DNA of 32,000 bases, taken from NCBI RefSeq assembly GCF_000007145.1, contig NC_003902.1:1927436-1959435 (forward strand), given 5' to 3'. Below the pieces are notes generated by a model. It made no database searches and was not told the DNA's origin. It was given only the letters and a program-made list of their open reading frames with translations. Origin of the DNA: Xanthomonas campestris pv. campestris str. ATCC 33913 (GTDB taxonomy: Bacteria > Pseudomonadota > Gammaproteobacteria > Xanthomonadales > Xanthomonadaceae). How positions within the stretch are numbered: the stretch's first letter is position 1; the number at the start of each line of letters is the position of its first letter. A program made the translations under genes and the position numbers. Positions 4,621 through 30,436 of the stretch are shown here, piece after piece.

Positions 4621-5349
4621 TCAACGCGTGGCTGCCTTCGATTGCCGCGCGCTGGCCAACGATTGCGCCACCGCGATCTTGTCGGCAACGGCCTGCTGCA
4701 TCGGCGAGCCGGTGTCGAGCAATCCATGCAGATGCTGCCAGTGGTCGGTGGCCGCGGCGTAGTCGTGTTGCTGGAAATCGCTGATGCCCAGCAGCCACAG
4801 GCCGCGCTGGTTGTCCGGCTCGGCGGCAACCACCTGCTGCAAACGTGCCCGCGAGGACGCATCGATGGCGAAGTCTGCGCGCGTGGCCATGTCCGAGGCC
4901 ACCCAGCCCACGATGGCCGCGCTGTTGTCCGGTGCCAGCTGCAACGCCTGCGCATACGCATCGCGTGCCTCGGCAGGGCGGTTTTCCTGCTCATGCGCCT
5001 TGGCCTGCTGCATCCAGCTGGTGAGCGCCTGTAGCGCGGCGGCCTGTTGCGAGTCCGGTGCCGGCGTTTGCTCTACTGCAGCAGTCATGCCTGACGCAGA
5101 CGCTGCACTGCCGGGCTGCGCGAGGGCGCTTGCAGCCGCACGCTGTGGTTGCACGTTCGCCATTGCATCGGGCGTGCCGACCAGGCGATACAGCCCCGCC
5201 GTGCTCAGTGGCAGGCCCAGCATCAGCAGCAACGGCAGCGCATGCCGCGCGCTGCCGTTGCGCTGCGCATGCTGGCGCACCGGCACCACCAGCAGCGCCG
5301 TGGCGCCCACCACCATCGCGGCGCTTGCGACATAAAACCCGATCATCAC
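4621..5349 (-). CDS. ccmI: c-type cytochrome biogenesis protein CcmI/CycH (TM anchor plus TPR-like domain)
   Basis: Two N-terminal TM helices ('MMIGFYVASAAMVVGATALLVV', 'ALPLLLMLGLPLSTAGLY') are followed by TPR-like repeats ('AEARDAYAQALQLAPDNSAA', 'LWLLGISDFQQHDYAAATDHWQHL'). It is the last gene of the ccm operon, and its start overlaps the ccmH stop. Confidence 0.7.
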   Translation of the reverse strand: MMIGFYVASAAMVVGATALLVVPVRQHAQRNGSARHALPLLLMLGLPLSTAGLYRLVGTPDAMANVQPQRAAASALAQPGSAASASGMTAAVEQTPAPDSQQAAALQALTSWMQQAKAHEQENRPAEARDAYAQALQLAPDNSAAIVGWVASDMATRADFAIDASSRARLQQVVAAEPDNQRGLWLLGISDFQQHDYAAATDHWQHLHGLLDTGSPMQQAVADKIAVAQSLASARQSKAATR

Positions 5350-5798
5350 CAGTCTTCCTCGGTCTGTGGCGCCACCGGGGTGCCGGCACGCGCCCGTTTA
5401 CGCACGGTGTGCAGGACCACGGCCGCGCCTGCGCCCAACATCAGCAACGGCCCGAACCACAGCAGCCAGGTGCCGCGCTTGACCGGTGGGTCGTACAACA
5501 CGAAATCCGAATAGCGCTCCACCATGTACTGCTTGATCTGCGCATCGCTGCGGCCGGCCTGAAGTTGCGCGAACACCTGGTGGCGCAGGTCGCGGGCCAG
5601 GTCTGCATTGGAGTCGGCCAGGTTCTCGTTCTGGCAGACCAGGCAGCGCAGCTGCGCGGTCAATCGCTGGAAGCGTGTTTCTTCGTTGCGGTCCTTGAAC
5701 GGCAACGGGTCCACCGCCTGGGCGGCCAGCGGTGGGGCCAGCAGCATGCCCAGCAGCAGCGCCAGCAGCAGGCGCGCGGTGCGTTGCCGCAGGCTCAC
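5346..5798 (-). CDS. ccmH: cytochrome c-type biogenesis protein CcmH
   Basis: Signal peptide, 'LRCLVCQNENLADSNADLARDLR' (LRCxxCQ redox motif) and a C-terminal TM. It has 4-nt overlaps with both neighbours. Confidence 0.9.
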   Translation of the reverse strand: MSLRQRTARLLLALLLGMLLAPPLAAQAVDPLPFKDRNEETRFQRLTAQLRCLVCQNENLADSNADLARDLRHQVFAQLQAGRSDAQIKQYMVERYSDFVLYDPPVKRGTWLLWFGPLLMLGAGAAVVLHTVRKRARAGTPVAPQTEEDW

Positions 5799-6337
5799 GG
5801 CGCGCCTTGGGACAAGCCCGCAATCGCCGGCATCAATTCATTGCGGATGACCTCCGGCGTCAGCACGCCAATGTGCTTGTAGCGGATTATCCCGTGCGCA
5901 TCGATCAGGAAACTTTCCGGCGCGCCATACACGCCGAAATCGATCGCGGTCTGGCCGGGCTCATCGGCAATCACCATGCCATAGGGATTGCCGTGCTGCG
6001 CGAGCCAGGCGTTGGCATCGGCCGGCGCGTCCTTGTAGTTGTAGCCGATCAACGCCACGCCGAGCGTGCGGCCGTGCGCCATCAGCACCGGATGCTCCTG
6101 CGCGCAGGCGGCGCACCAGCTGCCGAAGACATTCAGCACGTAGGGCTTGCCCAGCAATTGATCGCGGGTGATTTGCTGCTGCGGTTGATCCAGCAGCGGC
6201 AGCGAGAACGCCGGCGCCGGCTTGCCGATCAGTGGCGAGGGCACATCGCGCGGGTTGTGCTGCATCGTCCAGTAGATGCCGAAGCCGAACAGCGCGGCCA
6301 GCGCCAGAAAGCCCAACAAGGGCAGGAGGCGGTTCAC
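5795..6337 (-). CDS. ccmG: thiol:disulfide interchange protein DsbE/CcmG
   Basis: N-terminal anchor, thioredoxin motif 'VLNVFGSWCAACAQEHP' (WCxxC) and 'FGVYGAPESFLID'. It has 4-nt overlaps with ccmF and ccmH. Confidence 0.9.
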   Translation of the reverse strand: MNRLLPLLGFLALAALFGFGIYWTMQHNPRDVPSPLIGKPAPAFSLPLLDQPQQQITRDQLLGKPYVLNVFGSWCAACAQEHPVLMAHGRTLGVALIGYNYKDAPADANAWLAQHGNPYGMVIADEPGQTAIDFGVYGAPESFLIDAHGIIRYKHIGVLTPEVIRNELMPAIAGLSQGAP

Positions 6338-8331
6338 AGGTGCAACTCTCCGGCAACGGCGAGGGGAGTGGGGGCGATGGGAGCAGGCGACGACACCGCG
6401 GCAACCGCAGGTACCGGTGCGCGGAAGCGCCGCGCGCAGGCGCTGACGAACCCGCCCAGCATCATCAACAGCCCGCCGGCCCAGATCCAGCGGATCAACG
6501 GTTTGTAGTACAGCCGCAGCGTCCAGTCGTTTTCGATGTGCTGGTCGTCCAGCGGCTCGCCCAGCGCCACGTAGAGGTCGCGGGTGGCGCCGGCGTCGAT
6601 CGCCGATTCGGTCTGGATGCGCTCACTGCTGTACAGGCGTTTTTGCGGATGCAAGGTAGCCACCGGCGCACCATCACGGCTGACCTGCACGCTGCCTTGT
6701 TCGGCTTTCCAGTTGGGCCCATCCACCAGCTGCACGCCATCGAAGCGGAAGCTGTAGCCGGCGATCTCCGCGCTCTGGCCGGGCGCCAGCCGCACGTCGC
6801 GTTCCACCGACAGGCTGTCCGACACCAGCACGCCGGCCACGAACACCGCCACACCGGCGTGCGCCAACAACATGCCGGCCATCTCGGCAGGAAAGCGCCG
6901 GCCGCGCGGCATCTCGCGCCAGCGCTTGTGCATGTACAACGCGGTGCCGGCAGCCACCCAGGCGGCCGCACCGATGCCGGCAATGGCCTTGGCCTGGCCC
7001 TCGGCAAACACGCTGGCGACCAGCGCGCAGGCGATGGCGGCAATGCCCGCACGCGCGCCCAGCGACAGCAGCGGTGCCATCTCGGCCTTGCCCCAGCGCA
7101 AGTACGGGCCGAATGGCATTAACAGCACCACCGGCGCCATCAGCAACGGAAACAGCAGGCCGAAGTAGGGCGGGCCCACAGACACCTTGCCCAGCCCGAA
7201 CGCATCGGCCACCAGCGGGAACAAGGTGCCCAGCAACACCATCGCCGCGGCCACGGTGAGCAGCAGGTTGCCGACCAGGATCGCGGTCTCGCGCGAGGCC
7301 GCTGCGAACGGTTTGCCGGTGGCGATCTTGGGCGCGCGCAGCGCATACAGCAGCAGCGAGCCGCCCACCACCGCCACCAGGAAAATCAGGATGTACAGGC
7401 CGCGCCGTGGGTCGGCGGCAAACGCATGCACCGAGGTGAGCACGCCCGAGCGCACCAGGAAGGTACCCAGCAACGACAACGAAAATGCCAGGATCGACAG
7501 CAGGATGGTCCAGGCACGCAGGCTGCCGCGTTTTTCGGTCACTGCCTGGGTATGAATCAGCGCGGTGCCCACCAGCCACGGCATGAAACTGGCGTTTTCC
7601 ACCGGGTCCCAGAACCACCAGCCGCCCCAGCCCAGTTCCGCATACGCCCACCAGCTGCCGGCCACGATGCCGGCGGTGAGGCAGGCCCAGGCGACGTTGG
7701 TCCATGGCCGCGCCCAGCGCACCCAGGCCTGTTCGAGTTCGCCGCCCAGCAGGGCGGCTACCGCGAACGCGAATGCCACCGAGAAGCCGACATAACCGGT
7801 GTAGAGCACCGGTGGGTGGAAGGTCATGCCCGGGTCCTGCAGCACCGGATTGAGTTCCCTGCCGTCGAGCGGAATCGGCGACAGCCGCCCAAACGGATTG
7901 GAGGTCAGCAGGATGAAGGCCAGAAAGCCCACCGATACCAGCCCCAGCACCGCCAGCACGCGTGCGGCGAAGTGCTGCGGCAAGTGCCGGCTGCAGGCGG
8001 CCAGCAGCACCGTCCAGGTGGACAGGATCGCGATCCACAGCAGCAGCGAACCTTCGTGCGCGCCCCACACCGCGGCGATGCGGTAATACCAGGGCAGGGC
8101 GATGTTGGCGTTGTCGGCGACATAGCGCACCGAAAAATCCAGCGACAGCAGCGACCAGGCCAACAGGCCGAAGGCCAGCCACACGAACACCGCCTGGCCG
8201 GCGGCGGCAGGCCGCGCAACCGCCATCAGCGCGGTGTTGCCGCGCCAGGCACCGATCAGCGGCAACACGCCCTGCGTCAGCGACAACAGCAACGCCAAAA
8301 TCAGCGCGATCTGGCCAAGTTCAGGCGTCAT
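6334..8331 (-). CDS. ccmF: heme lyase subunit CcmF
   Basis: A 665-aa polytopic protein with the WWD motif 'GWGGWWFWDPVENAS', at the expected position in the ccm operon. Confidence 0.95.
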   Translation of the reverse strand: MTPELGQIALILALLLSLTQGVLPLIGAWRGNTALMAVARPAAAGQAVFVWLAFGLLAWSLLSLDFSVRYVADNANIALPWYYRIAAVWGAHEGSLLLWIAILSTWTVLLAACSRHLPQHFAARVLAVLGLVSVGFLAFILLTSNPFGRLSPIPLDGRELNPVLQDPGMTFHPPVLYTGYVGFSVAFAFAVAALLGGELEQAWVRWARPWTNVAWACLTAGIVAGSWWAYAELGWGGWWFWDPVENASFMPWLVGTALIHTQAVTEKRGSLRAWTILLSILAFSLSLLGTFLVRSGVLTSVHAFAADPRRGLYILIFLVAVVGGSLLLYALRAPKIATGKPFAAASRETAILVGNLLLTVAAAMVLLGTLFPLVADAFGLGKVSVGPPYFGLLFPLLMAPVVLLMPFGPYLRWGKAEMAPLLSLGARAGIAAIACALVASVFAEGQAKAIAGIGAAAWVAAGTALYMHKRWREMPRGRRFPAEMAGMLLAHAGVAVFVAGVLVSDSLSVERDVRLAPGQSAEIAGYSFRFDGVQLVDGPNWKAEQGSVQVSRDGAPVATLHPQKRLYSSERIQTESAIDAGATRDLYVALGEPLDDQHIENDWTLRLYYKPLIRWIWAGGLLMMLGGFVSACARRFRAPVPAVAAVSSPAPIAPTPLAVAGELHL

Positions 8332-8397
8332 GGGCGTGGCGCTGCGGGCAACGGAAAAGAGTCATCTGGATCCGGAGTGATGGAGTGGTGGCGCGGG

Positions 8398-8868
8398 TCA
8401 GCGCACACCGCTCAACGGGGCCGCGGCCGCTGGGATCGGCTTGCCGACGTGGCCTTCGGCCATCGCGTCCTTGAGTTCCTTCGGCATGTAGGTTTCGTCG
8501 TGCTTGGCCAGCACTTCGTTGGCGACAAAGCGCCCCGCCTGCATGCGGCCGTTGGCGATCACCGACTGGTTGTCGCGGAACAGGTCCGGCAGGATGCCGG
8601 TGTATTCCACCTGCGTGGCGGCGTGCTTGTCGATCACTTTGAAGGTCACGGTGAGGCTGTCGGTGGCACGCTGGATCGAGCCGGCCTTGACCATGCCGCC
8701 AAGGCGGAACTGCTGGTAGCCGGCCGCCGCGCCCGCATCCACCTGGCTGGGCGTGAACAGGTAGCTCATGTTCCGCTGCAGGGCGAGCGCGATCAGTGTC
8801 ACCGCCAGCGCTGCAGCCGTCAGCACGCCGATCACCAGCCACAGGCGTTGTTTACGCGTAGCGTTCAT
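8398..8868 (-). CDS. ccmE: heme chaperone CcmE
   Basis: Anchor '[23 protein letters not shown]' and heme-binding '[10 protein letters not shown]' (HxxxY). The start is ATG 8868. The 209-aa track version extends through ccmD in another frame and is not supported. Confidence 0.95.
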
Positions 8869-9068
8869 GCGTCGCGCTCCAGCACCGGCACCGGCTGCTC
8901 GCGCGGCCGGCGCGGCGCCTGCCGCTGCAGCTGTCCGCGCAGTTGCGCGGGCAAGCGCCGCCGGCGCAGCCATGGGGCGATCAGGTCGGCCAGCAGCACC
9001 AGCACGAACAAGGCATACGCGGTCCACACGTAGGCGCCGTAGCCGCCCATGGCGAGAAAGGCGCTCAT
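8865..9068 (-). CDS. ccmD: heme exporter protein CcmD (67 aa)
   Basis: '[38 protein letters not shown]' is a single TM plus a basic tail. ATGA-type overlaps link it to the ccmC stop (9065) and the ccmE start (8868). In the track it is visible only as the C-terminal tail of the spurious 376-aa ORF 8865..9995. Confidence 0.75.
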
Positions 9069-9823
9069 GCGGTGCGCTCGGTCAAGACGATGCGGCGTGC
9101 CCAGTCCTTGCCGCTTTCCAGCGCAAGCAGGTCCACCCGCACGCGGCCGAACAGGCTGGCCACGTAATACAGCTTGGTCGCCACCAGCATCAGCAGCAGC
9201 GGCCACAGCATGTCCGCGCCCATCTTGGAGGGGCCGAGCAGGCGCACCGTGGAGCCCTGGTGCAGCGTGTTCCACCACACCACCGAGTAATGCACGATCG
9301 GCAGGTTCACCAGGCCGACCAGCGCCAACAGCCCGGCCGCACGCATCGCCTGGCGGCGGTCTTCCACCGCGTGGTACAGGCCCAGCACGCCCAGGTACAG
9401 AAACAGCAGCAACAGTTCGGAGGTGAGCCGGGCATCCCAGGTCCACCAGGTGCCCCACATCGGCTTGCCCCAAAGCGAGCCGGTGCACAGGGTGATCAAG
9501 GTGAAGGCGGCGCCGATCGGTGCCGAGGCCATGGTCACCACTTCGGCCAGCTTGATCCGCCAGATCAGCGCAATGAACGCCGACACGCCCATCGCCGCGT
9601 AGATGAAAAGGCTCATCCAGGCGCTGGGCACGTGGATGAAAATGATGCGGTAGGCGTCGTGCTGCTGGTAATCCGGCGGCGCCAGTACCAGCCCGCCGTA
9701 GGCGGCCACCGTAGCCAGCAGCAGTGCCAGGCCCAGCGCCCACGGGCGCACCACACCGGCGAACCGGTAGAAGGTGGGCGGCGAGCTGAGCTTGTGCAGC
9801 CACAGGGGAATCCACTTGGCCAT
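9065..9823 (-). CDS. ccmC: heme exporter protein CcmC
   Basis: '[19 protein letters not shown]' (WWD motif) in a polytopic protein of about 6 TM helices. Confidence 0.95.
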
Positions 9824-9831
9824 GCGCGTCG

Positions 9832-11148
9832 TCAGTTGGAGTGTTTGGAAAGCGCCAGCGCGTCGACCGCGGCGCCGGCGTTGACCTGCAACTGGCCATC
9901 GGAGACCTTGCTGGTGCGCTGCATGAGCGCACGCAAGGCGTTGGCGTCCATCGATGGCGACAGCGACAACAGCAATGCGGCCATGCCGCTGACATGCGCG
10001 GTGGCCATCGACGAGCCGGAGGTGAAGTCGTAACGGCCGTTCGGCTGCGTGGTCAGGATGTCCTTGCCCGGTGCGCTGAGCACGCCGGGCAGGGCGGCCG
10101 TGGCGCTGCTGCTGCGCACTACCAGCACGCCCGGTACATCGTTCGGAAAGCCATCCAGGCGCCCGTTCGGCGGCATGGCTGCGACCACGATGCGGCCATG
10201 GTCGACCAGGTGGGTGAGCATCTTGCGCAGCAGCGGGTCGGCGGGGCCGCCCAGGCTCAAATTGACCACGCGCGCGGAGCTGTTGTTGATCGCCGCCAGC
10301 GCCTTGGCCAGGGTGAACGAATTACAGCGGGCGGTGCTGCCGGTGCTGGGCGCATACCAGCAGGCCTTGTAGATGCTCAGCATGGCCCGCGGCGCCATGC
10401 CGACGATGCCCTGATGGTTGTTGCTGCCGGCGGCGATGATGCCGGCCACTTCGGTGCCGTGCGAATCGCTGCTGGTGGTGACCGGGGTGTCGTCCACCAG
10501 GTCGTGCACCTCGCGGATGCGTGACTTCAGATCCGGGTGGCTGGTGTCCACGCCGGTGTCGACCACGGCCACCGTCACGCCGCGGCCCTGGGTGACGGCC
10601 TGCGCACTTGCCGCATTGGTGGCGATGAAGCCGCGTTGCAGGTCCACGTACGGGTCGTTGTAGCCGGTCAGGGCGCCGGTCTTTTCCGAGGCATCGGTGG
10701 AAAACACCGAAAATTCCTGTACTGGTTGCACCAGCTCCACGCCGTCGTCGTCGGACAGCGCCTTGATCAATTCGTCGCGCGAGACACCGGCCGGCGGGTG
10801 CAGCACCGCGCAATACAGGCCCAGCGAGGTGATCGGCCAGGCCGAGACTTCGCGCAACTGGTAGCGCTGCTTCAGCGCTTCCATGCGGGCGGCCGCATGC
10901 TGGCCGGCGCCGTAGTAACTGGAGGCATACCCGATCAGGCTGGAGCCGGCGCGTGCCGGCGGCGCGGTGAGTGGGTTGGCCACCGCCAGCAGAATGTCGC
11001 GGCTGCTGTCGGGCACCTTTGCGTCGGCGTCCGCTTTCTCTGCCTCGGCAGCCGCGGCGATGGCCTGCGGATCGGCCGCCTGCGCGCACACGGGGGCGGT
11101 GAGGCTCAGCAGCGCCGCCAGCAGACCGATGGCCCAGGGCGTGGTCAT
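9832..11148 (-). CDS. secreted subtilisin-like (S8) serine protease with propeptide
   Basis: Signal peptide 'LLAALLSLTAPVCAQA'. Triad blocks 'VAVVDTGVDTSHPDL' (Asp), 'HGTEVAGIIAA' (His) and 'GSSMATAHVSGMAALLLS' (Ser). An ATGA overlap links it to the anti-sigma stop. Its stop is 8 nt from the ccmC start. Confidence 0.9.
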   Translation of the reverse strand: MTTPWAIGLLAALLSLTAPVCAQAADPQAIAAAAEAEKADADAKVPDSSRDILLAVANPLTAPPARAGSSLIGYASSYYGAGQHAAARMEALKQRYQLREVSAWPITSLGLYCAVLHPPAGVSRDELIKALSDDDGVELVQPVQEFSVFSTDASEKTGALTGYNDPYVDLQRGFIATNAASAQAVTQGRGVTVAVVDTGVDTSHPDLKSRIREVHDLVDDTPVTTSSDSHGTEVAGIIAAGSNNHQGIVGMAPRAMLSIYKACWYAPSTGSTARCNSFTLAKALAAINNSSARVVNLSLGGPADPLLRKMLTHLVDHGRIVVAAMPPNGRLDGFPNDVPGVLVVRSSSATAALPGVLSAPGKDILTTQPNGRYDFTSGSSMATAHVSGMAALLLSLSPSMDANALRALMQRTSKVSDGQLQVNAGAAVDALALSKHSN

Positions 11149-11798
11149 GGCGCGGACACGATCTCGGCCAGCCGGATGCCCGGGGTGGCGCGCAGCTGCT
11201 GCACGGTCTGTTGCGATGGCGCCGGCGGCTGTGCGGCCGGTACCACGGTGTAGGCGCCCATTTCGTTGGGGCCACCCACCACCTGCAACTGCTGTGCATG
11301 CAGCAGGCGATCCCAGTCGGCGACGGTCAGGCCGGCATCCGGTACCACCCGGATCGCGCCCTTCGGTACCGGCAATGCAGTGGCGCTGCTGAGCGTGCGG
11401 TAGTCGTGCACCGGCGCTGGCGCGGCCAGCTTGACGCCCATGACGCCCAGGCCGACTGCCTGCACCAGGGCGGCGGCGGCCAGCGCACGCACCGTCCAGC
11501 TACCTGAGCGGCGGGCGGGCGGTGCGCGTGCCGGGACCGGCACCTGTTCGGGCGCATCGATCTTGCCGAGCAGCCGCAGCAGGCCGGCATTGGCATCCAG
11601 CTTGACCGCGCAGGGCAGGGCCAGCGCCTGGCGCAGGCGGCTCTGCTGGGCGAACTCGGCGCTGCACGACGGGCACTTGGCCACGTGTGCGATCAGCCAG
11701 GTGTTCTCTTCTTCGCTGGCGCTGTCCAGCAGAACGGCGGGCATCAACTCCCAGGCGTGCGAGCATTCCTTGCCCGGCGCGATGAAGAACGTCTTCAT
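11145..11798 (-). CDS. membrane-bound zf-HC2 anti-sigma factor
   Basis: 'AHVAKCPSCSAEF' (HxxxCxxC), a single TM 'VRALAAAALVQAVGLGVMGV' and a periplasmic tail of about 85 aa. The start ATG 11798 overlaps the sigma factor stop. The upstream part of the track ORF (to 12107) is off-frame overlap. Confidence 0.8.
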   Translation of the reverse strand: MKTFFIAPGKECSHAWELMPAVLLDSASEEENTWLIAHVAKCPSCSAEFAQQSRLRQALALPCAVKLDANAGLLRLLGKIDAPEQVPVPARAPPARRSGSWTVRALAAAALVQAVGLGVMGVKLAAPAPVHDYRTLSSATALPVPKGAIRVVPDAGLTVADWDRLLHAQQLQVVGGPNEMGAYTVVPAAQPPAPSQQTVQQLRATPGIRLAEIVSAP

Positions 11799-12376
11799 TG
11801 CATGGTCTCCGTAGATGGCGCGCTGCCGGCCAGGCCGGGCAGCACATTGCGTAATTTGACCCGCGCATGGAACAGCCGGGCTTTGATCGTGCCCACCGGG
11901 CACTGCATGATTTCGGCGACTTCTTCCAGCTTGTGGCCGACGCCATAAACCAGTTCGATCACCAGCCGCTGGTCTGGCGACAACCGTTCCATGCCTTTGT
12001 CGAGCCAGTCGCGCAGTTCGCGGTCGTCGTTGTCGTCGGTACTGGGAGCGTGGTCTTCGACCGTGGCGGTGTCGTCGATGGCCTCGCCGTCGTGCTGGCG
12101 CAGGCACTTCAAGCCGCAGCGGTAGGCGATGCCCATGATCCAGGTCGACACCTGCGAATCGCCGCGGAAGTCGCCGGCTTTTTGCCAGGCGATCCAGAAG
12201 CAGTCGTTGATCGCTTCTTCGATGATGTCCGGGCGCCGGGTCAGGCGCGACAGGAAGCGACAGAGCCGCCCGTGATAGGCGGTGTACATGGTCGCCAGGG
12301 CGTCACGGTCGCCCGCAGCCATGCGGCGCAGCAGCATGCGGTCGGTCGCGTCACCCAGGGTATCGGTGTCAGTCAT
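11795..12376 (-). CDS. ECF (sigma-70 family group 4) RNA polymerase sigma factor
   Basis: Region 2 'IIEEAINDCFWIAWQKAGDFRGDSQVSTWIMGIAYR'. Region 4 HTH 'LSPDQRLVIELVYGVGHKLEEVAEIMQCPVGTIKARLFHARVKLR'. Confidence 0.9.
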   Translation of the reverse strand: MTDTDTLGDATDRMLLRRMAAGDRDALATMYTAYHGRLCRFLSRLTRRPDIIEEAINDCFWIAWQKAGDFRGDSQVSTWIMGIAYRCGLKCLRQHDGEAIDDTATVEDHAPSTDDNDDRELRDWLDKGMERLSPDQRLVIELVYGVGHKLEEVAEIMQCPVGTIKARLFHARVKLRNVLPGLAGSAPSTETMQ

Positions 12377-12438
12377 CGAAGAGGCGCTGCAAAGGTTATC
12401 GGTCAGTGCCCATCACCGGGCAAAAGGTTGCGTCTGGA

Positions 12439-13206
12439 TCAGAACGACTTGGAGACGCTGCTCAGCCAGGGGGTTTCGCCCGGTCCGCCCTGCATGCGCG
12501 GGGTGTTGTTGCTGGTGATCACGCGCTCCAGCTTCAACGCCCAGCCGGCACGGCTCCAGCACAGCCCCACCTGTCCGTATTGATAGCGGCCGGCTTCGCT
12601 GGCGCCGTAGGCCATTGCCGGAAATCGCGACGACCCCGCGCCCAGCACCAGGCTGACATCGTGACGCAGCGGCACATTGGCGGTGACGTCGACCGCCACA
12701 TTCCACGGTGACTGGTCGGCGCGCGGGAAGTTGAAGACCGAGACCGAAAAGGTGAGCACATCGCGGTAGGACCAGGCCAGGCTGCCTTCCTGACGGTCGA
12801 AGGTGCGCGTGGCCTGGTTGGTCGGGTAGCCGTAATACAGCGCGCTGGCCTGCATCTGCCAGCGATCGCCCAGCATCCAGGCACGCCCGATCTGGGCGGC
12901 GACCGCCACCGGGTCGCTCAATGACGGCGCCTGCAGCGCGCCGGACACCGAGACCGACCACCCGGGTGAGGGCAGCCAATAGCCGGCCATCTGCAGGGTG
13001 GCCTTGTCGGGCGCGATGGAGATGCCGCGGTCGATCAGGCTGGAGGAGAGCGAAACAGCGCCGCCGACGTTGTCAGCCAGTGCGTGGCTACACGGCCCCA
13101 GCGTGAGCGCCAGGGCGAGCCATAGGCCGTTGGCAGGCCCCGGGTGGCCTGCGTTTCGAAAGGAGGCCGAAGCGCCGCGGCGCAGGCGGGCAGGGGGGGT
13201 CAGCAT
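12439..13206 (-). CDS. small outer-membrane beta-barrel protein, Gcw_chp/TIGR02001-like
   Basis: Signal peptide '..LWLALALTLGPCSHALA/DN'. 'VSLSSSLIDRGISIAPDKATLQMAGYW' resembles the family's N-terminal block. The sequence alternates between hydrophobic and polar residues, and it ends in 'LSSVSKSF' (terminal Phe beta-signal). The family call is from memory. Confidence 0.6.
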   Translation of the reverse strand: MLTPPARLRRGASASFRNAGHPGPANGLWLALALTLGPCSHALADNVGGAVSLSSSLIDRGISIAPDKATLQMAGYWLPSPGWSVSVSGALQAPSLSDPVAVAAQIGRAWMLGDRWQMQASALYYGYPTNQATRTFDRQEGSLAWSYRDVLTFSVSVFNFPRADQSPWNVAVDVTANVPLRHDVSLVLGAGSSRFPAMAYGASEAGRYQYGQVGLCWSRAGWALKLERVITSNNTPRMQGGPGETPWLSSVSKSF

Positions 13207-13423: not shown

Positions 13424-13449
13424 GTGCACCGCGCCTGACCGTACGCTGC
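13424..13449 (-). terminator. perfect 9-bp hairpin just downstream of the cytochrome c gene
   Basis: GTCAGGCGC (13424-13432) pairs with GCGCCTGAC (13441-13449) around an 8-nt loop. It starts 15 nt beyond the minus-strand stop at 13465. There is no U-tract. Confidence 0.4.
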
Positions 13450-13464
13450 CGGTCATGCCCAGCC

Positions 13465-13860
13465 TCATTTGAGGCTGTTGAGATAGACGATGAGTGCGTC
13501 CAACTCCTTGGGATCATCCAGGCCTTCGTACTTCATCTTGGTGCCGGGCAGCGCCTTGGACGAAGACTGCGACAGGTAGGTCTTCAGCTGTGCCGGCGTC
13601 CACTGCCACTTGCTGTTCTTGAGCGCGTCGGAGTAGTTGCTGTAGTCCGGCAGGCTGGCCGCCTGGCGGTTGCCAATGCCGAACATGGACGGGCCTTTCT
13701 TGTTCTTGCCTTGCGTTGCGCTGTGGCATTCGGCGCATTCGGCCATGAAGGTGTCCTTGCCCGCACCGTCGGCGGCACGCGCCGGCGGTGCCAGGGTGGC
13801 GCCGGCCAATAGCAGGCCGGCGAGCGGGGCGCACAACAGGGTCTTGTGGAATGGATGCAT
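13465..13860 (-). CDS. periplasmic class I (c2/mitochondrial-type) monoheme cytochrome c
   Basis: Signal peptide, 'FMAECAECHS' (CXXCH), 'KKGPSMFGIGNRQA', 'PGTKMKYEGL' (Met ligand region) and a C-terminal 'LIVYLNSLK'. Confidence 0.9.
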   Translation of the reverse strand: MHPFHKTLLCAPLAGLLLAGATLAPPARAADGAGKDTFMAECAECHSATQGKNKKGPSMFGIGNRQAASLPDYSNYSDALKNSKWQWTPAQLKTYLSQSSSKALPGTKMKYEGLDDPKELDALIVYLNSLK

Positions 13861-13893
13861 GGGGGTCCGTCGGAATACGTGCAGCGATGGGGA

Positions 13894-15240
13894 TCAGAAC
13901 GCCAGGTTCACCGACAGCGAGAAGCTGTCCAGATCGCGCGGGTTGGTGATCGGGGGGCCACGGAACACGTTGGAGGTGCTGCCGTTGAACTTGTCGAAGC
14001 GGAACCAGCCGGCCGATACGCGCAGGTTGGCGTTGGTGGTGTAAGTGCCTTCGCGGCCGAACGGGCTCCAATACACCAGGATCAGATTGCTGGTTGTGTC
14101 GGGAATGCCGACCGGCGAATAACGCGCCGCATCGAAGGAGCCGGTATTGATCATGTGCGCGGCCAGCACGCCGTAGGTCTGCTTGAACGCGTAGTTCATG
14201 CTGAGGGTCTGGTCACGCACGCTGCCGCGATCCAGCGGGCCCATGCTTGGGTCCGAGGACACCAGCGGGCTGCCGTACTTGCGGCGCTCGTAGATGTTGA
14301 CGTAGGCCAGCGACATGGTGTGTTCGCGGGTGCCGAGGAACTGATAGGTCAGGTCGTAACCCAGGTCGGTGAGGTCGTCGCTGGGCCCGTTGCGCGGCCG
14401 CTGGCGGCGCGTGTTCAACGCGGTCATGCCGATCGAGAAGAACTGCCGCTTCATGTCCTTCATGTAGGCCACGCGTGCGTAGCTGGTGTCGCTGAGCCTG
14501 CCGGGGTCGCCGTTGATCGGCCAGCCCAGGCGGTCCTGCGTGTCGGTGGAAAGCGCCTTGTAGGTGCCCACTTCGCCGTACCAGTTGCGGTCGTACAGCC
14601 CGTAAACGCTGGCGCCGATCACGCGGTTGGACAGCGCCGAGGAGCTGAGCATCGTGGAGGCGCCGCCATTGGAGGCCGGTGTCAGCGTCGAGGCATTCGG
14701 CAGCACGTGGATCGGGTCGGAAATGCCGGGGTTGTTATTGACGCTGACGCCGAGCATCGCGTCCTTGCCCGCCATCTGGAACGGCTTGCTGACAAAGCGC
14801 AGATCCACATCGTCCAGGCGCGTGTCGAAGGTGGCGTTGCCGCTGTTGTTGGAGCGGATCTTCGAATAACCGCCGATATTGTCGTTGACCCGGCCGGCCA
14901 GATACAGATCGGCCTGGGTGAGACGCGCGGTGCTGTCGCCGCGGCTGGGATTGGTGCGGGCCCAGGTGAGCTGGCCGGACGCCGGGATCTTGGTGCCGTT
15001 GCCGTCGGTGTCGGTGAAGCCGCCCAGCTTGAAGCGCATGCCGTAGGGCGTGAGCGAGGGACCGTAGGAGCCGATGTGGCAGTCTGCGCACGACGAACCG
15101 GTTTGCCGCGCGAACGAGGGAATGGCCTGGGCCTGGGTGCTGGCAAGCAGCAGCAACGGGCCGGACACGCACAACATGGAGGTCAGCGACGCCGTGCGTG
15201 CGGCATGGGTGCGGCGGGGAGCGGGCAGTGTGGAAGGCAT
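13894..15240 (-). CDS. outer-membrane protein with an N-terminal CXXCH heme motif fused to a beta-barrel (Cyc2-like fused cytochrome-porin architecture)
   Basis: Signal peptide 'SMLCVSGPLLLLASTQAQA/IP', then 'SFARQTGSSCADCHIGSYGPSLTPYGMRFKLGGF'. About 400 aa of alternating beta-strand-like sequence follow, ending in 'SFSLSVNLAF'. I set the start at ATG 15240 because AAGGA lies 7 nt upstream. The track start is 15300. Confidence 0.65.
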   Translation of the reverse strand: MPSTLPAPRRTHAARTASLTSMLCVSGPLLLLASTQAQAIPSFARQTGSSCADCHIGSYGPSLTPYGMRFKLGGFTDTDGNGTKIPASGQLTWARTNPSRGDSTARLTQADLYLAGRVNDNIGGYSKIRSNNSGNATFDTRLDDVDLRFVSKPFQMAGKDAMLGVSVNNNPGISDPIHVLPNASTLTPASNGGASTMLSSSALSNRVIGASVYGLYDRNWYGEVGTYKALSTDTQDRLGWPINGDPGRLSDTSYARVAYMKDMKRQFFSIGMTALNTRRQRPRNGPSDDLTDLGYDLTYQFLGTREHTMSLAYVNIYERRKYGSPLVSSDPSMGPLDRGSVRDQTLSMNYAFKQTYGVLAAHMINTGSFDAARYSPVGIPDTTSNLILVYWSPFGREGTYTTNANLRVSAGWFRFDKFNGSTSNVFRGPPITNPRDLDSFSLSVNLAF

Positions 15241-15296
15241 GGGAAGTCCTTGTTCGGCGGTGCGGGAGCGGGCGAGGGCGGGCAGCAGGAAGCGGG

Positions 15297-15917
15297 TCAT
15301 CGGTGATGTTTGCCGGGCAGCACGCGATGCAGCAGGCCATCGCGCAACACCAGGTGGTGCACGAGTGCGGCAACGATATGCACCGCGACTAATGCGAGCA
15401 GTGCCCAGGCCGCATTCAAGTGCCAGGTGCCGAGGGTGTCGGCCAGGTCCTCATCCGCAGCGACCAGGTTTGGCAGCGTTATCCCGAACAGATAGACCGT
15501 TTTGCCGTAAGCGTTGCTCAGCGACCAGCCGATCAGCGGCAGCGCAAGCATCAGCGCGTACATCGCCACATGCGTGCCACCGGCAGCCAGGCGCATGATC
15601 AGCGGCGAGGGCGGGCCGGGCGGCAAGGCGCGCAAGCGCAGACGCAGGCTGACGCGTAAGACGAAGAGCAGCAGCACCATCAGGCCGAAGTGGCGGTGGC
15701 CTTCCAGCAACCACTGCCGCAGGGCGCGGCCCTCCAGTTCGGCGCGCAGCAGGATCAGGCTGGCGGCCATCACCAGGCACAGCACCGTCAGCCAGTGCAG
15801 GACACGCATGGAGCGGGGCAGGGGAACCACGCCCGGCGCGGTGGTCGCCGACGGCGGCGGCAGTGCGTCGGCGCCGTTACTGGCGGACATGTCAGGGGCA
15901 TGCCGGGGGGCATTCAT
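15297..15917 (-). CDS. cytochrome b561 family inner-membrane protein
   Basis: 'VLHWLTVLCLVMAASL', 'GHRHFGLMVLLLFVLR', 'THVAMYALMLALPLIGW' and 'LGTWHLNAAWALLALVAVHIVAALVHH' form four TM helices with the conserved His ligands. ATG 15917 is preceded by AAGAGGA. ATG 15809 is an alternative start, and the track extension to 16088 is unsupported. Confidence 0.8.
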   Translation of the reverse strand: MNAPRHAPDMSASNGADALPPPSATTAPGVVPLPRSMRVLHWLTVLCLVMAASLILLRAELEGRALRQWLLEGHRHFGLMVLLLFVLRVSLRLRLRALPPGPPSPLIMRLAAGGTHVAMYALMLALPLIGWSLSNAYGKTVYLFGITLPNLVAADEDLADTLGTWHLNAAWALLALVAVHIVAALVHHLVLRDGLLHRVLPGKHHR

Positions 15918-16030
15918 CGGGTTGGGGTCCTCTTCGGAGGTGGTCGTTGGATCCGGTAATGCGATGCGTCGCCGGGCCTGCGCTCCCCACGCCGGCCATG
16001 ACAGCCAGGTGAACGTGCACGGATATGTGC

Positions 16031-16058
16031 GGCGATGCCGACGAAAGGTTGCATCGCC
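16031..16058. promoter_or_regulatory. 8-bp inverted repeat in the divergent b561/fdtA intergenic region
   Basis: GGCGATGC (16031-16038) pairs with GCATCGCC (16051-16058) around a 12-nt loop. One further C:G pair (16030/16059) extends the stem. Function unknown. Confidence 0.2.
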
Positions 16059-16141: not shown

Positions 16142-16220
16142 ACGGGCCGCAACCTTTCGCACATCCGGACGCACTCAGGCATGTCGCACTACGTGCAGTC
16201 AGCGGTTACGCCCCCGGAAC

Positions 16221-16643
16221 ATGGCCATCGAACGCATCCAGTTGCATACGCACGGCGACGACCGCGGGCTGCTCATTTCATTGGAGCAGCAGCGCAACGT
16301 CCCGTTCGAGATCCGTCGCGTGTACTACATCTTCGGTACGCGCCAGGGCGTGCATCGCGGCCAGCATGCGCACCGCCAGCTCAACCAATTGGCAGTTGCC
16401 CTGCATGGGTCGGTGACGCTGCTGCTGGATGAAGGCCAGGGCCAGGGCCCGGAAGAAGTGGTGCTGGACGACCCGTCGCAGGGCGTACTGCTCGGGCGCA
16501 TGGTGTGGCGCGACCTGCACCAGTTCAGCGAGGACTGCGTGTTGATGGTGCTGGCCGACCAGTACTACGACCCGGGCGACTACATCCTGGACTACGACGA
16601 ATTCCTCACCGAAGCCCGCGGCGTCAGCCGGCTGGAGGCATGA
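16221..16643 (+). CDS. fdtA: dTDP-4-keto-6-deoxyhexose 3,4-ketoisomerase, FdtA/QdtA (WxcM C-terminal domain-like cupin)
   Basis: 'GDDRGLLISLEQQRNVPFEIRRVYYIFG..GVHRGQHAHRQL.Q..VALHGS..LLLDEG......VVLDDPSQGVLLGRMVWRDLHQFSEDCVLMVLADQYYDPGDYI.DYDEF' aligns closely with my recollection of FdtA. I cannot tell FdtA from QdtA stereochemistry by eye. Confidence 0.8.
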   Translation: MAIERIQLHTHGDDRGLLISLEQQRNVPFEIRRVYYIFGTRQGVHRGQHAHRQLNQLAVALHGSVTLLLDEGQGQGPEEVVLDDPSQGVLLGRMVWRDLHQFSEDCVLMVLADQYYDPGDYILDYDEFLTEARGVSRLEA

Positions 16644-16813
16644 GCATGCGCAAGCCGTTGGTCATCATCGGGGCGGGCGAGTTTGCGCAGATCGCTGGCC
16701 GCATTGGTCGTAGTCGCAGTGCACGTCGTTGCGAGCGCGTCATTGGGCCTGCGTTCGTGAATTTGAGTGCGTGCCTGTCTGAGCAGACATGCGTTGGAAC
16801 ATTCAGTCAATGA
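16640..16813 (+). pseudogene. 57-codon remnant of a NeuD/PglD-type sugar N-acetyltransferase gene
   Basis: 'MSMRKPLVIIGAGEFAQIA' matches the Rossmann-like N-terminus of NeuD-family acyltransferases, and then all resemblance ends. G/C at codon position 3 is 17/19 for codons 1-19 and 19/38 afterwards. ATGA overlaps occur at both ends (16640 with the fdtA stop, 16810 with the aminotransferase start). Confidence 0.45.
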
Positions 16814-17931
16814 CGCTCCCTGAAATTCCCTTTCTGGATTTGCGTGCCGTCAACGCGCGTTACGCGGATGCGCTCAAGGCCGCCGCTGCGCGGGTGATCG
16901 ATTCGGGCTGGTATGTGCTTGGCCAGGAGTTGGCGGCGTTCGAAGAGGAGTTCGCCAGCTACTGCGGCGTGCAGCAGGCGGTGGGGGTGGGGAACGGGCT
17001 GGACGCGTTGTCGCTGATCCTGCGCGCCTACCGCGAATTGGGCGTGTTGCGCGAGGGCGATGAGGTGATCGTGCCGGCCAATACGTTCATTGCGACGTTC
17101 CTGGCGATCAGCCACAACCATCTGGTGCTGGTGCCGGTGGAGCCGGATCCGCAGACCTTCAACGTGGACCCGTGCAGGGTGGAGCGCGCCATCGGGCCGC
17201 GCACACGCGCCATTCTGGCCGTGCATCTGTACGGACAGCTTGCCGACATGCCGGCACTGCAGACGTTGGCGCACCGCTATGGCTTGCTGCTCATCGAAGA
17301 CGCCGCGCAAGCGCATGGCGCAAGCCGCGACGGTGTGCGTGCGGGCGCGTTCGGCGATGCGGCGGCGTTCAGTTTTTTTCCCACCAAGAACCTTGGTGCG
17401 CTGGGCGACGGCGGTGCGGTAGTGACCTCCGACCCGCGCCTGGCCGAGCGCGTGCGCGCGCTGCGCAACTATGGCTCGGAGGTGAAATACCAGCATCTGT
17501 TCCAGGGGGTCAATTCGCGCCTGGATGAGCTGCAGGCGGCCTTCTTGCGGGTCAAGTTGGGCTATCTGGATGAGGAGGCTGCACAGCGCCGCGCAGTGGC
17601 CCAGCGTTACCTGCAAGAGATCGATCACCCCTGGATCACGTTGCCCCCGGTGGCGCATGCCGAGCAGCATGTCTGGCATCTGTTCGTGGTGCGTAGCCAG
17701 CGCCGCGATGCCTTGCAAAGCCATCTGCAGCACCTCGGTATCCAGACCCAGATCCATTACCCGGTGCCGCCGCATCTGCAGCCGGCCTATGCCATGCTGG
17801 GCGATACCTGCCTGCCGATCAGCGAGCAGCTGCATCGCGAAGTGCTGAGCCTGCCGATGAGCCCGGCGCTGGACGACGCGGCAGTCAGCCGCGTCATCAC
17901 CGCCTGCCAAGTGTTCGGTAGCGCACCGTGA
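16810..17931 (+). CDS. DegT/DnrJ/EryC1/StrS-family PLP-dependent sugar aminotransferase (FdtB/QdtB-like)
   Basis: '[13 protein letters not shown]', '[21 protein letters not shown]', '[12 protein letters not shown]', '[19 protein letters not shown]' (PLP Lys) and 'RNYGS'. Start ATG 16810. Confidence 0.9.
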
Positions 17932-19181
17932 ATCTGGTGCGCAGCAGCGCCTACACCGGCGTTGCGACGCTGGCCAAGCTGCTGGCGGCGCTGGTGGTGA
18001 TCAAGTTGGTGGCGGTGTTTGCCGGGCCGCAGGGAGTTGGCCGGCTGGGGCAGTTCCTGGCCCTGATGTCGGTGCTGGCGGTGCTGGCCGGTGGCGGCAT
18101 CAGTACCGGCATCGTCAAGTATGTGGCGCAGTACCGCAGCGATGCACTTGCACTGCAACGACTGTTGAGCGCAGCACTCGGCTACGCCTGTAGTGCGGCG
18201 TGCGTGATGGCAGTGCTGGCGCTGGTCTTCAGCGACGTGCTCGCCGAACGGTTGTTGGGCGATGCGCAGGCGCGTTGGCTGATCTGTGTGCTGGCGGTGG
18301 CGCAGATCGGCATCGCGCTGGTCAACTACATCCTGGCGATCATCAATGGCTTCATGGACGTACGCCGGCTCGCCATCGTGCAGGTGAGCGGGGCGGTGCT
18401 GAGTGTTGCCCTGGTCGCCTGGCTGGGCAGCGGGTGGCAGTTGCAAGGCGCCTTGCTGGCGTTGGTGCTGGGCCAGGTGCTGTGGTTGATCGCCGCCGTG
18501 CCGGCCTTGCTGCGCAGCCCGTATTTCCAGCGCGAGATGCTGCGCATGCGGCTGGATGCGCAGATGACCCGCCAGCTTGCGGCGTTTTCGGTGATGACCC
18601 TCACCGCCACGTTGGTGCCGCAGCTGGTGGGCATGCTGGTGCGCGATCATCTGGCGCTGCAGTTTGGCTGGCAGCAGGTTGGCTACTGGCAGGCGGTGAG
18701 CCGGGTCTCCGATGCCTACCTGTTGTTCTTTACCACCGCGATCAACGTCTATTACCTGCCCAAGCTGGCCTCGCTGCAGGACCGGCAGGCACTGCGCCGC
18801 GAGCTGCGGACCGCCTATCGTTACGTGATGCCCGCGGTGGTGGCGATGGCCGCGTGCGTCTACCTGTTGCGTGACTGGGTGACCTGGCTACTGTTCGATG
18901 CCCGCTTCGCCGCGGCCGCTCCGTTGTATGGCCCGCAGCTGCTCGGCGATGTGATCAAGATCGCCGCGTTCGTGCTGTCCTACGTGATGCTGGCCAAGGC
19001 GATGACGCGGCTGTTCGTGGTGTCCGAATGCGTGTTTGCCGCCAGCTATCTGGGGCTGGTGTACCTGTTCACTGCACAGTTCGGCCTGATCGGCGCCATG
19101 TATGCATTTGTCGTCAACTACGTGCTGTATCTGCTGTTCAACATCGTGGTGGTGCGCCGTTATCTGAGGACGACGGCATGA
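17928..19181 (+). CDS. wzx: Wzx-type flippase, WzxE (ECA lipid III flippase)-like
   Basis: A polytopic 417-aa protein. '[47 protein letters not shown]' and '[30 protein letters not shown]' parallel my recollection of E. coli WzxE. The GTG start overlaps the upstream stop. Confidence 0.8.
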
Positions 19182-20116
19182 GCCTGCTGGAACGCCCGAG
19201 CGGACGTGCGCGCTGGCCGCTGGTGTCGGTGCTGATTCCCGCGTTCAACCATGCGCGTTTTGTGCAGCGCTGTCTGGACAGCGTGCTGGAGGACCCGTAC
19301 CCGTCCAAGGAGATCGTCATCATCGATGATGGCTCCAGCGATGACACCGGCGAGCAGATCGCCGCATGGATCGCGCTGCACGGCCATCGCGTGCCGGTGC
19401 AGTTCGTCCAGCGCAGCAACCGCGGTGTGGCGGCCACGCTCAACGAGCTGGCATTGCGCGCGCGCGGGGAGTATCTGCGCATTTGTGCGAGTGACGACTA
19501 TCTTCTTCCTGGCGGACTGCACGTTCAGGTTGACTACCTGGTACGCCATAGGAATAAAGCGGCGGTCATCGGCGATGCGATCGTGATCGATGGTGATGGC
19601 GCGACCTTGCATGCAAGTGCGATGTCCGGACTCCATGGAGTGAGTCGCGGCCCTTACGCAAGCGATGACGGGATTCGCCGCGAGATCATTTGTAGGTGGG
19701 CCGTAAGCGGCGCCGTATTGCTGCTGCGCAGGAGTACGTTCGCGGCAGGTCTCCGGTGGAACGAAAGCCTTCGGATTGAGGATTGGGACTTTTATCTCAG
19801 GCTTGTATCGAAAGATCTGCTTGCGTTCATTGATGTTCCGGTGTGTGCGTATCGGCTCCATGGAGCGAATGCAAGCAAGACGCGTGATCCTGGAAAGAGG
19901 CTAAGCAACCTGACCGAATTCCTGGAGGTCGCTTCTGCGTCCCGTCATATTTTTGGTCGCAGGGACCAGCGATTCATACTCGCTCAATCCAGCTTGATCT
20001 CATCCAAAATACATTTCATCGAGAAGAGATACCTGCAGGCATCGGGATTTCTTGTGCTGTATCTGACGAGAAGTGTCTTGGCGAAAGCAGGGTGGGACAG
20101 GATGGTCAGCTCATAA
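19178..20116 (+). CDS. family 2 glycosyltransferase
   Basis: 'VSVLIPAFNHARFVQRCLDSVLEDPYPSKEIVIIDDGSSDDT' and 'LRICASDDYLLPG' (DxD-like). ATG 19178 overlaps the wzx stop. The 3' half is conspicuously lower in GC. Confidence 0.85.
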   Translation: MSLLERPSGRARWPLVSVLIPAFNHARFVQRCLDSVLEDPYPSKEIVIIDDGSSDDTGEQIAAWIALHGHRVPVQFVQRSNRGVAATLNELALRARGEYLRICASDDYLLPGGLHVQVDYLVRHRNKAAVIGDAIVIDGDGATLHASAMSGLHGVSRGPYASDDGIRREIICRWAVSGAVLLLRRSTFAAGLRWNESLRIEDWDFYLRLVSKDLLAFIDVPVCAYRLHGANASKTRDPGKRLSNLTEFLEVASASRHIFGRRDQRFILAQSSLISSKIHFIEKRYLQASGFLVLYLTRSVLAKAGWDRMVSS

Positions 20117-30217: not shown

Positions 30218-30436
30218 CTGCGCAAGGTTCTCGTTCTGTCGCCAGGTGGGCGCAGCAGCGGCGCGCGCAAGACACCGGCATTCGGCTCGGCAGTAGGTGC
30301 GCATGCAAGCCACTTTGGTTGTGCCGATGCACGAGCCGTGCGCTGCGCGCCGTTCATGCGCGCGGCGGGCAATGCACGCAACCTTTCGGCGGCCGAGCCG
30401 CACACACCGGCTGAACTTGTGCACGGATGAAACGGC

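Follow-up and report, generated by a model that had tools for sequence, protein, structure and literature searches.

The 32,000-nucleotide stretch of the Xanthomonas campestris pv. campestris (Xcc) ATCC 33913 genome analyzed here (the window; all coordinates are positions within it) carries three consecutive minus-strand genes for a cytochrome b561, a 448-aa fused monoheme cytochrome-porin of the Cyc2 family and a monoheme cytochrome c2 (Table 1). An earlier interpretation of the DNA letters, termed the sequence-only reading below, had picked out these genes, and the three open reading frames (ORFs) were recovered. They are separated by 56 nt (b561-cyc2) and 33 nt (cyc2-c2). The longest ORF of the middle gene would begin at 15300, where its ATG overlaps the b561 stop codon (ATGA); the start was taken as 15240, which is favored by homologs and their gene calls. 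Since the fusion protein has 429 database homologs and its profile matches 2206 clusters at 50% identity, the trio is considered to consist of real genes and not chance ORFs. The first product contains four hydrophobic segments, matches PF01292 (E = 9.5e-22; 78.1 bits at a gathering cut-off of 30.1) and aligns over residues 39-204 with Escherichia coli CybB (PDB 5OC0; E = 3e-18), covering the whole four-helix core and superimposing the heme-ligand histidines, in agreement with the four-helix inner-membrane b561 that had been proposed. The NCBIfam model PRK11513 scores 84 bits, under its equivalog cut-off of 170. The third product also conforms to its earlier description as a 131-aa class I cytochrome c with a signal peptide: it presents CAECH at residue 42, PGTKM near the C-terminus and a PF00034 match (31.4 bits; gathering cut-off 21.3), complemented by a weak match to NCBIfam CycA c550 (3.7e-20) that lies under the cut-off of that model.

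The features that define Cyc2 proteins allow for an assessment of the middle gene product. These comprise a signal peptide, one CXXCH motif, a downstream PXL, a length of at least 365 aa and a 16-strand porin, while the sequence AXPXFAR[Q/K][T/Y] upstream of CXXCH was called unique to Cyc2 (Keffer et al., 2021; PMC8406198). The N-terminal region of the window protein reads AQA, then IPSFARQTGSSCADCHIGSYGPSL, and inspection identified a Sec signal peptide with a basic n-region, the segment LCVSGPLLLLA and an AQA cleavage site before IPSF. The sole CXXCH is CADCH at residue 51, and both strings quoted by the sequence-only reading, IPSFARQTGSSCADCHIGSYGPSLTPYGMRFKLGGF and the C-terminal LSVNLAF, are present. 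Matched against the Keffer consensus, the signature AIPSFARQTGSSCADCH...PSL follows the pattern AxPxFARQT-x3-CxxCH, and the spacing of AIPSFARQT-GSS-CADCH is identical to that of Acidithiobacillus ALPSFARQT-GWS-CAACH. PSL begins six residues past the heme histidine (H-IGSYG-PSL) and not four as in the published definition (H-TSY-PQL); this two-residue-longer form (H-VGGFG-PQL) is common among family representatives. With 448 aa, the protein exceeds the length threshold, and AlphaFold2 (AF2; 34 sequences) predicts the barrel that had been suspected, with 16 strands between residues 87 and 447 (predicted local distance difference test, pLDDT, 70.5; predicted TM-score 0.71). The best Foldseek matches in the PDB are the 16-18-strand porins Omp36, OmpC, OmpF and MOMP (E 4e-9 to 1e-7; TM 0.4-0.6).

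Homology searches point in the same direction. Pfam and NCBIfam searches of the fusion protein matched no family, which is uninformative because Acidithiobacillus Cyc2 has no Pfam family either. For 20 distant cluster representatives, the names obtained were confined to Thiotrichaceae, Sulfurospirillum and Burkholderiales, and a protein named Cyc2 was not among them; therefore, Acidithiobacillus rus operons were retrieved with a rusticyanin sequence, which found a match of 100% identity. In these operons, whose identity was checked by Pfam, the first gene is followed by diheme Cyc1, CoxB, CoxA and rusticyanin. A profile built from Xanthomonadales proteins (A1) recognizes the first gene in six rus operons with scores of 56-90 bits, and the one match inspected in full (L006) spans both the heme region and the barrel. 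BLASTP aligns the fusion protein with A. ferrivorans Cyc2 at 28% identity over 316 columns (E = 3e-17). The Acidithiobacillus sequences compared are orthologs from A. ferrivorans, A. ferrianus, A. ferruginosus and metagenome-assembled genomes (MAGs), a set that does not include the assayed A. ferrooxidans protein. Among the best 150 clusters, all full-length representatives contain one CXXCH after a close variant of A-x-P-x-[FY]-A-R-Q-T, and none of the 43 diverse proteins in alignment A2 deviates in the heme motif. Signature motif, predicted barrel, profile A1 and BLASTP homology thus make the assignment of the fusion protein as a genuine Cyc2-family member well supported, and the earlier description of a Cyc2-like fused CXXCH-porin held for every sequence and fold feature that could be assessed here, apart from the longer distance to PXL. 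In the same alignment of 43 Cyc2-family proteins, no Met or His other than the CXXCH histidine is invariant, which leaves no evident candidate for the sixth heme ligand; K71, Y221, Y227 and D296 (numbering of the window protein) are among the residues that do not vary.

The sequence-only reading had considered such a protein unexpected in a plant-associated heterotroph, a view that does not agree with published surveys. Redundant Cyc2 sequences from Xanthomonas, Burkholderia and Ralstonia were thinned out for the tree of Keffer et al. (2021; PMC8406198), a table of Cyc2 homologs lists Ralstonia solanacearum, Burkholderia, Chromobacterium, Rhodanobacter and Dyella (He et al., 2017), and a sequence-similarity network study linked Acidithiobacillus Cyc2 to Rhodanobacteraceae. 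The Cyc2-family locus in Xanthomonas is already catalogued; its partner genes and regulation are new. A literature search for a link between b561 and Cyc2, or for work on Cyc2 in Xanthomonadales, found nothing relevant.

Table 1. Features of the Xcc cyc2 region, with positions in the 32-kb window.
Feature	Position	Strand	Basis and remarks
System I cytochrome c maturation genes ccmC-E-F-G-H-I	4621..9823	-	Pfam; context, not part of the conserved cluster
Secreted S8 (subtilisin-family) peptidase	9832..11148	-	PF00082, 2.5e-37; 4-nt overlap with anti-sigma stop
Membrane anti-sigma factor, 217 aa	11145..11798	-	Zinc-binding motif HVAKCPSC; ATGA overlap with sigma stop
ECF sigma factor RpoE4 (XCC1665 / XC_2566)	11795..12376	-	Pfam Sigma70_r2, r4, ECF; exact match AAM40959
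Predicted rpoE4 autoregulatory promoter	12406..12430	-	Exact motif match, 29 nt upstream of sigma ATG
Small outer-membrane beta-barrel, TorF-like, 255 aa, between c2 and rpoE4	12439..13206	-	Predicted; probably XC_2565
Periplasmic class I c2/c550-type monoheme cytochrome c, 131 aa	13465..13860	-	PF00034; annotated 'cytochrome C2'
Cyc2-family fused monoheme cytochrome-porin, 448 aa	13894..15240	-	UniProt Q8PA25_XANCP, exact database match, annotated 'cytochrome C'
Cytochrome b561, inner-membrane, di-heme, 206 aa, first gene of operon	15297..15917	-	PF01292
Predicted RpoE4-type promoter of b561-cyc2-c2	16027..16051	-	Exact motif match, 109 nt upstream of b561 ATG
Predicted divergent ECF-type promoter of FdtA-DegT-Wzx-GT2	16150..16174	+	Exact motif match, 46 nt upstream of FdtA ATG
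FdtA-like isomerase, divergent sugar/polysaccharide operon (16221..20116)	16221-16643	+	Pfam
DegT aminotransferase, divergent operon	16789-17931	+	Pfam
WzxE-like flippase, divergent operon	17928-19181	+	NCBIfam WzxE, 288 bits
GT2 glycosyltransferase, divergent operon	19028-20116	+	Pfam
Fourth exact motif copy, before HprK-related ORF 30437-31525 (+)	30379..30403	+	33 nt upstream of ORF

The cluster is larger than the three genes: it also contains a small barrel, a sigma factor of the extracytoplasmic function (ECF) type, an anti-sigma factor with a zinc-binding (ZAS) motif and an S8 peptidase, all overlooked by the sequence-only reading. The loci used for comparison (cited by L-numbers) include those of Lysobacter enzymogenes and Rhodanobacter glycinis and 80 metagenome loci. 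The order b561, cyc2, c2, a protein of about 250 aa, ECF sigma factor, anti-sigma factor and S8 peptidase is kept in L. enzymogenes, R. glycinis and seven metagenome loci, in which the FdtA...DegT...flippase operon is likewise divergent. The combination of divergent sugar operon and cyc2 cluster extends to L. enzymogenes, R. glycinis and nine non-redundant metagenome loci (ten contigs, of which L035 and L036 are duplicates). As the sequence-only reading had anticipated for relatives, the trio stays together, even in distant ones: b561-cyc2-c2 occurs outside Xanthomonadales (L026), b561-cyc2 is found in a Thiotrichaceae MAG, and the trio is encountered again at only 33-40% identity, in lineages where the surrounding genes are otherwise unrelated. 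Among the 80 metagenome loci, b561 lies directly upstream of cyc2 in 14, all at least 33% identical to the query and counted as carrying the trio, and a c2-type gene lies directly downstream in 23. Four loci with c2 but without b561 encode a NapC/NirT tetraheme cytochrome (PF03264, 3.8e-68) divergently and just upstream (L047, 2643-3281 on the minus strand; L054; L055; L058), at the position taken by b561 in related loci. One quinone-linked inner-membrane cytochrome is thereby swapped for a member of a different family, which provides the strongest comparative argument for a connection of the module to the quinone pool. The wiring of outer membrane, periplasm and quinone pool proposed by the sequence-only reading fits this exchange, and its interpretation as a whole is supported in part. 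More distant family members carry a diheme Cyc1-like gene downstream, as in Acidithiobacillus, or cyc2 alone, and a neighbor-joining tree places loci with b561, NapC or c2 context in one half and rus-operon Cyc2 in the other. The b561-cyc2-c2 trio marks one Cyc2 subclade. In the Thiotrichaceae MAG (L025, 1566-6359), b561-cyc2 is preceded by two c-type cytochrome genes and a NiFe hydrogenase small-subunit-like gene (Oxidored_q6 and NiFe_hyd_SSU_C), with no large-subunit gene seen in the fetched stretch.

The sigma factor of the cluster, XCC1665/XC_2566, was named rpoE4 and has no homolog in Pseudomonas, Ralstonia or Erwinia (Yang et al., 2018; PMC6085468). Its anti-sigma gene shows ATGA overlaps with both the sigma and the S8 peptidase gene, and the product contains one transmembrane segment, matches an NCBIfam anti-sigma model (1.5e-7) and carries the database name 'zf-HC2 domain-containing protein'. 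The S8 peptidase is kept in all Xanthomonadales loci. Sigma regions 2 and 4 only, an adjacent HxxxCxxC anti-sigma factor and a promoter motif upstream of the sigma gene characterize the pair as a putative autoregulated ECF/ZAS system. A literature search found no ECF group with this neighborhood, nor any description of a regulon of Cyc2 and glycan genes with a coupled S8 peptidase. The promoter motif, GCAACCTTT-N11-CGGCACTnA, is of the ECF type and was derived by aligning the upstream regions of ten Xanthomonadales loci. Its core, CAACCTT-N14-GCAC, has four exact copies in the window, a count not attained in any of 100 shuffles; the expectation is 0.61 even with one mismatch permitted. It occurs at the same three positions (rpoE4, b561 operon and FdtA) in 11 of 11 non-redundant Xanthomonadales loci, the copy at the sigma gene having at most one mismatch throughout, and is absent from 93 other loci. 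A motif placed ahead of the sigma gene itself typically indicates that an ECF factor regulates its own expression. The glycan and b561-cyc2-c2 operons are therefore predicted to be direct targets, and the cytochrome operon appears to be driven by the neighboring RpoE4. A sigma-70 promoter scan of 9500-16800 found none, and terminator matches did not exceed chance. The duplicate contigs L035 and L036 retain the small barrel, sigma, anti-sigma and S8 peptidase genes and the divergent FdtA operon, all with promoter motifs; in L035 the motif is located directly before cyc2.

Expression data are available for Xcc 8004 from RNA-seq in hydathodes of cauliflower (Luneau et al., bioRxiv 10.1101/2021.01.19.427230), where XC_2566 is described as belonging to the HrpG regulon and as encoding an ECF sigma factor that is induced at 4 h. 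By position, XC_2561 would be FdtA, XC_2562 b561, XC_2563 cyc2, XC_2564 c2, XC_2565 the small barrel and XC_2567 the anti-sigma factor. Relative to MOKA medium, the log2 fold changes at 72 h are 3.5 (XC_2559), 4.7 (XC_2560), 7.4 (XC_2561), 4.4 (XC_2562), 5.7 (XC_2563), 5.9 (XC_2564), 3.7 (XC_2565) and 4.9 (XC_2566), corresponding to an 11- to 170-fold induction, and at 4 h values of 4.1 (XC_2561), 2.3 (XC_2563), 2.7 (XC_2564) and 2.5 (XC_2566) are already reported (bioRxiv 10.1101/2021.01.19.427230). When an HrpG* strain was compared with the wild type in culture, only XC_2565 and XC_2566 of this block responded (bioRxiv 10.1101/2021.01.19.427230). One alternative is that the three genes are neighbors by descent only and that the porin has a vestigial or structural heme motif, with no electron transfer among the three products. 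Much of the synteny falls within one order, Xanthomonadales, and could be explained by vertical inheritance, and L035/L036 lack both partner genes. Yet the trio persists in the 33-40% identical lineages with unrelated flanks, the heme motif is invariant in the 43 aligned proteins with one CXXCH in every full-length representative, b561 is swapped for a different quinone-linked cytochrome and not merely lost, and the three genes are co-induced behind one predicted promoter. Shared descent as the sole explanation is considered very improbable.

Several further features surround the cluster. The small barrel has homologs throughout Xanthomonas, a weak TIGR02001 match, an AF2 model of about 12-14 strands (pLDDT 79) and Foldseek matches to FapF, NanC, KdgM and OmpG. 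Upstream of its gene, an imperfect sequence resembling a plant-inducible promoter (PIP) box, TTCAC-N15-TTGCC, is located at 13282-13306 (-); a second, HrpG/HrpX-dependent promoter at this site would explain why XC_2565 and XC_2566 alone are induced in the HrpG* strain. The 258-nt gap between c2 and the small barrel gene contains a 9-bp GC-rich hairpin, GTCAGGCGC...GCGCCTGAC, at 13413-13439 (-), 3' of the c2 stop codon; it has no clear T-run, which makes it a doubtful terminator of the operon. Near this gap the re-annotation of the RNA-seq study skips the number a32131. Across the whole window, neither the Rfam nor the tRNA scan detected a feature. In the divergent operon, FdtA and DegT are separated by 146 nt (16643-16789), a position at which Lysobacter and Rhodanobacter have three extra genes for a hexapeptide acyltransferase, a 317-aa protein of unknown function and an Acetyltransf_6 protein; the same re-annotation lists a previously unannotated, induced transcript, a32081, between XC_2560 and XC_2561. 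The ORF behind the fourth motif copy has a weak match to an HprK-related kinase model (TIGR04355, 1.7e-10) and is divergent from a B12-binding radical SAM gene (28730 to about 30220, -). XC_2544-2550, which lie roughly around this copy, are also induced in planta. A weaker copy, GCAACCAAAGTGGCGGCAGCCGGCACT at 22195-22221 (+), has two mismatches at correct spacing and is located 87 nt upstream of a methyltransferase gene (22308-23153); it could be a fifth RpoE4 target, at a stringency where eight copies were found and 3.65 expected, which is near chance.

The System I ccm genes had been given weight in the sequence-only reading as the apparatus that attaches heme beside the cytochromes, a significance that did not survive comparison. 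Four genes separate the ccm operon from the trio, and outside the window the adjacency is present in one locus (L027) only, and neither Lysobacter and Rhodanobacter nor the remaining Xanthomonadales loci show it. A functional ccm neighborhood was rejected on this ground, and because ccm follows the cluster only in the window and L027, the adjacency is regarded as a feature of the Xanthomonas lineage. ccmC starts 8 nt past the S8 peptidase stop codon (9823-9832), and no ccmA or ccmB is found in the window. XC_2569-2571, which would be ccmC, ccmD and ccmE, rise together with the cluster in planta between 4 and 72 h, which suggests read-through from the rpoE4 operon.

The region can be read as an envelope-spanning electron path that is built around the Cyc2-family protein and placed under a dedicated ECF sigma factor, an interpretation to which about even confidence is attached. 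A signal met in the plant would free RpoE4 from its zinc-finger membrane anti-sigma factor, possibly with participation of the co-encoded S8 peptidase, after which RpoE4 would transcribe the surface-glycan genes as well as the b561-cyc2-c2 operon. Inside the pore of the outer membrane, the heme would exchange electrons with a small soluble extracellular redox species, with cytochrome c2 as the presumed periplasmic carrier and b561 as the likely connection to the quinone pool. The gene anatomy, the family membership, the synteny, the common motif and the induction in planta are shown, while heme attachment, the cellular location of the proteins, electron transfer among the three products and the substrate are inferred. 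Several points weigh against this electron path. At typical potentials, electrons would have to move thermodynamically uphill to reach ubiquinone from a c2-type cytochrome, and a heterotroph has no obvious need for this. The AF2 model falls below a pLDDT of 50 for residues 1-66, which include the heme motif, and gives no reliable position of the heme relative to the pore. In the metagenome loci L035/L036, cyc2 (54% identity) is present without b561 and c2. The assignment of expression values to genes relies on consecutive numbering anchored on XC_2566, AAY49614 and AAY49615, and the block induced in planta comprises about 28 genes (XC_2544-2571), so that co-induction is not specific to the motif and agrees with the promoter prediction without proving it. 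Finally, virulence in leaf clipping was unchanged upon deletion of rpoE4, or of all nine ECF sigma genes except rpoE1 (PMC6085468); this assay bypasses hydathode entry.

Regarding substrate and direction, the oxidation of dissolved Fe2+ with inward electron flow is ranked first because every characterized Cyc2 catalyzes it, and by this analogy it would be the most probable single activity, although it is credited with slightly less than an even chance. In a heterotroph, its purpose may be iron-redox management or protection and not lithotrophic growth. The opposite direction is a serious rival, if a less likely one: quinol would be oxidized by b561 (or NapC/NirT), and electrons would pass through c2 and the heme-porin to an extracellular acceptor. 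This could be a chelate of Fe(III), with citrate or another ligand, whose reduction would serve the uptake of ferrous iron; Cu(II) and an oxidant from the plant are further candidates. An outward path requires its own quinol dehydrogenase, b561 or NapC, while inward iron oxidation could use resident oxidases. The replacement of b561 by NapC/NirT in four loci fits this requirement, as characterized NapC/NirT members oxidize quinol. Electrons flow downhill from quinol via c2 when the acceptor lies above about +200 mV, the heterotrophic host has ample reductant, and the operon is induced in planta. Against outward flow, each of the three Cyc2-family proteins studied biochemically oxidizes Fe(II), and CybB, the closest solved b561, is described as passing electrons to ubiquinone. 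In addition, the hydathode transcriptome study infers that assimilable iron is not limiting there (bioRxiv 10.1101/2021.01.19.427230).

A further alternative is a defensive role, in which superoxide or another radical of the plant oxidative burst reduces the outer-membrane heme and c2, the b561, a relative of CybB-type superoxide:quinone oxidoreductase, drains the electrons to quinones and the co-induced glycan operon remodels the surface. The b561 is a full-length homolog of CybB (PDB 5OC0), zinc anti-sigma factors with the HxxxCxxC motif found here include redox-sensing examples, and induction occurs within 4 h of entry into plant tissue. However, a connection with superoxide is not known for any Cyc2-family protein, electrons would still have to go uphill from c2 to quinone, the NapC/NirT swap is at odds with a CybB-specific chemistry and ECF mutants have no virulence phenotype; oxidant defense is accordingly a distinctly improbable account. 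A broader proposal, which is speculative and rather doubtful, views the RpoE4 regulon as a plant-triggered envelope program that couples an electron-exchange conduit to a glycan change, the conduit being either an outward quinol-driven reductase or a scavenger of Fe2+ or superoxide during the oxidative burst. The glycan part would consist of a 3-amino-3,6-dideoxyhexose pathway, a flippase and a glycosyltransferase. If this program were real, the large heterotroph branch of Cyc2 would be made up of proteins other than lithotrophic iron oxidases.

In genomes and metagenomes, cyc2 serves as the principal marker gene for inferring microbial iron oxidation. Most of the family nevertheless resides in organisms never shown to oxidize iron, and the model iron oxidizers are genetically hard to manipulate. 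Xcc, in contrast, is a highly tractable plant pathogen with a native Cyc2-family operon, dedicated partner cytochromes, a predicted on-switch through loss of the anti-sigma factor or over-expression of rpoE4, and published expression during infection. The locus is considered of moderate interest, mainly because it makes the function of a non-lithotroph Cyc2 and its electron direction testable in a tractable organism; the answer bears on the extent to which iron oxidation may be deduced from metagenomic cyc2 counts.

Among known systems, the closest counterpart is Acidithiobacillus Cyc2, which the rus operon encodes as its first gene and which is a member of Cluster 2 (McAllister et al., 2020; Keffer et al., 2021). 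Both proteins contain a signal peptide and a single CXXCH, have A-x-P-S-F-A-R-Q-T-G-x-S-C-x-x-C-H in common at the same spacing, continue with PxL-T-P-x-G-x-x-F-K after the heme motif and possess a porin domain of about 400 aa that ends in an aromatic residue. They differ in overall sequence (28% identity), in the two additional residues of the window protein between the heme histidine and PxL, in their partners (b561 and monoheme c2 versus diheme Cyc1, Cup, aa3 oxidase and rusticyanin) and in their hosts, a neutrophilic plant pathogen versus an acidophilic lithotroph. The likeness to Cyc2PV-1 of Mariprofundus ferrooxydans and Cluster 1, taken from the description by Keffer et al. (2021) only, consists of a fused cytochrome-porin with 16 predicted strands and the consensus motif; for Cluster 1 a specificity for dissolved Fe2+ was proposed (Keffer et al., 2021; PMC8406198). 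MtrCAB and MtoAB/PioAB with CymA are laid out in the same way, with a redox module at the outer membrane, a carrier in the periplasm and a quinone-linked cytochrome in the inner membrane, and the likeness to the CymA family is reflected in the NapC/NirT inner-membrane partner of four sister loci. There, however, a 26-strand porin sheathes a decaheme cytochrome, whereas one polypeptide with one heme is found here, and the window protein stands outside that family. The b561 has the four-helix di-heme fold of E. coli CybB, but CybB is encoded alone and the window gene heads an operon with two c-type cytochromes. Lastly, the regulatory cassette has ATGA coupling, HxxxCxxC and a motif before the sigma gene in common with known ECF systems that use ZAS anti-sigma factors, from which it differs by its predicted regulon of Cyc2 and glycan operons and by the coupled S8 peptidase.

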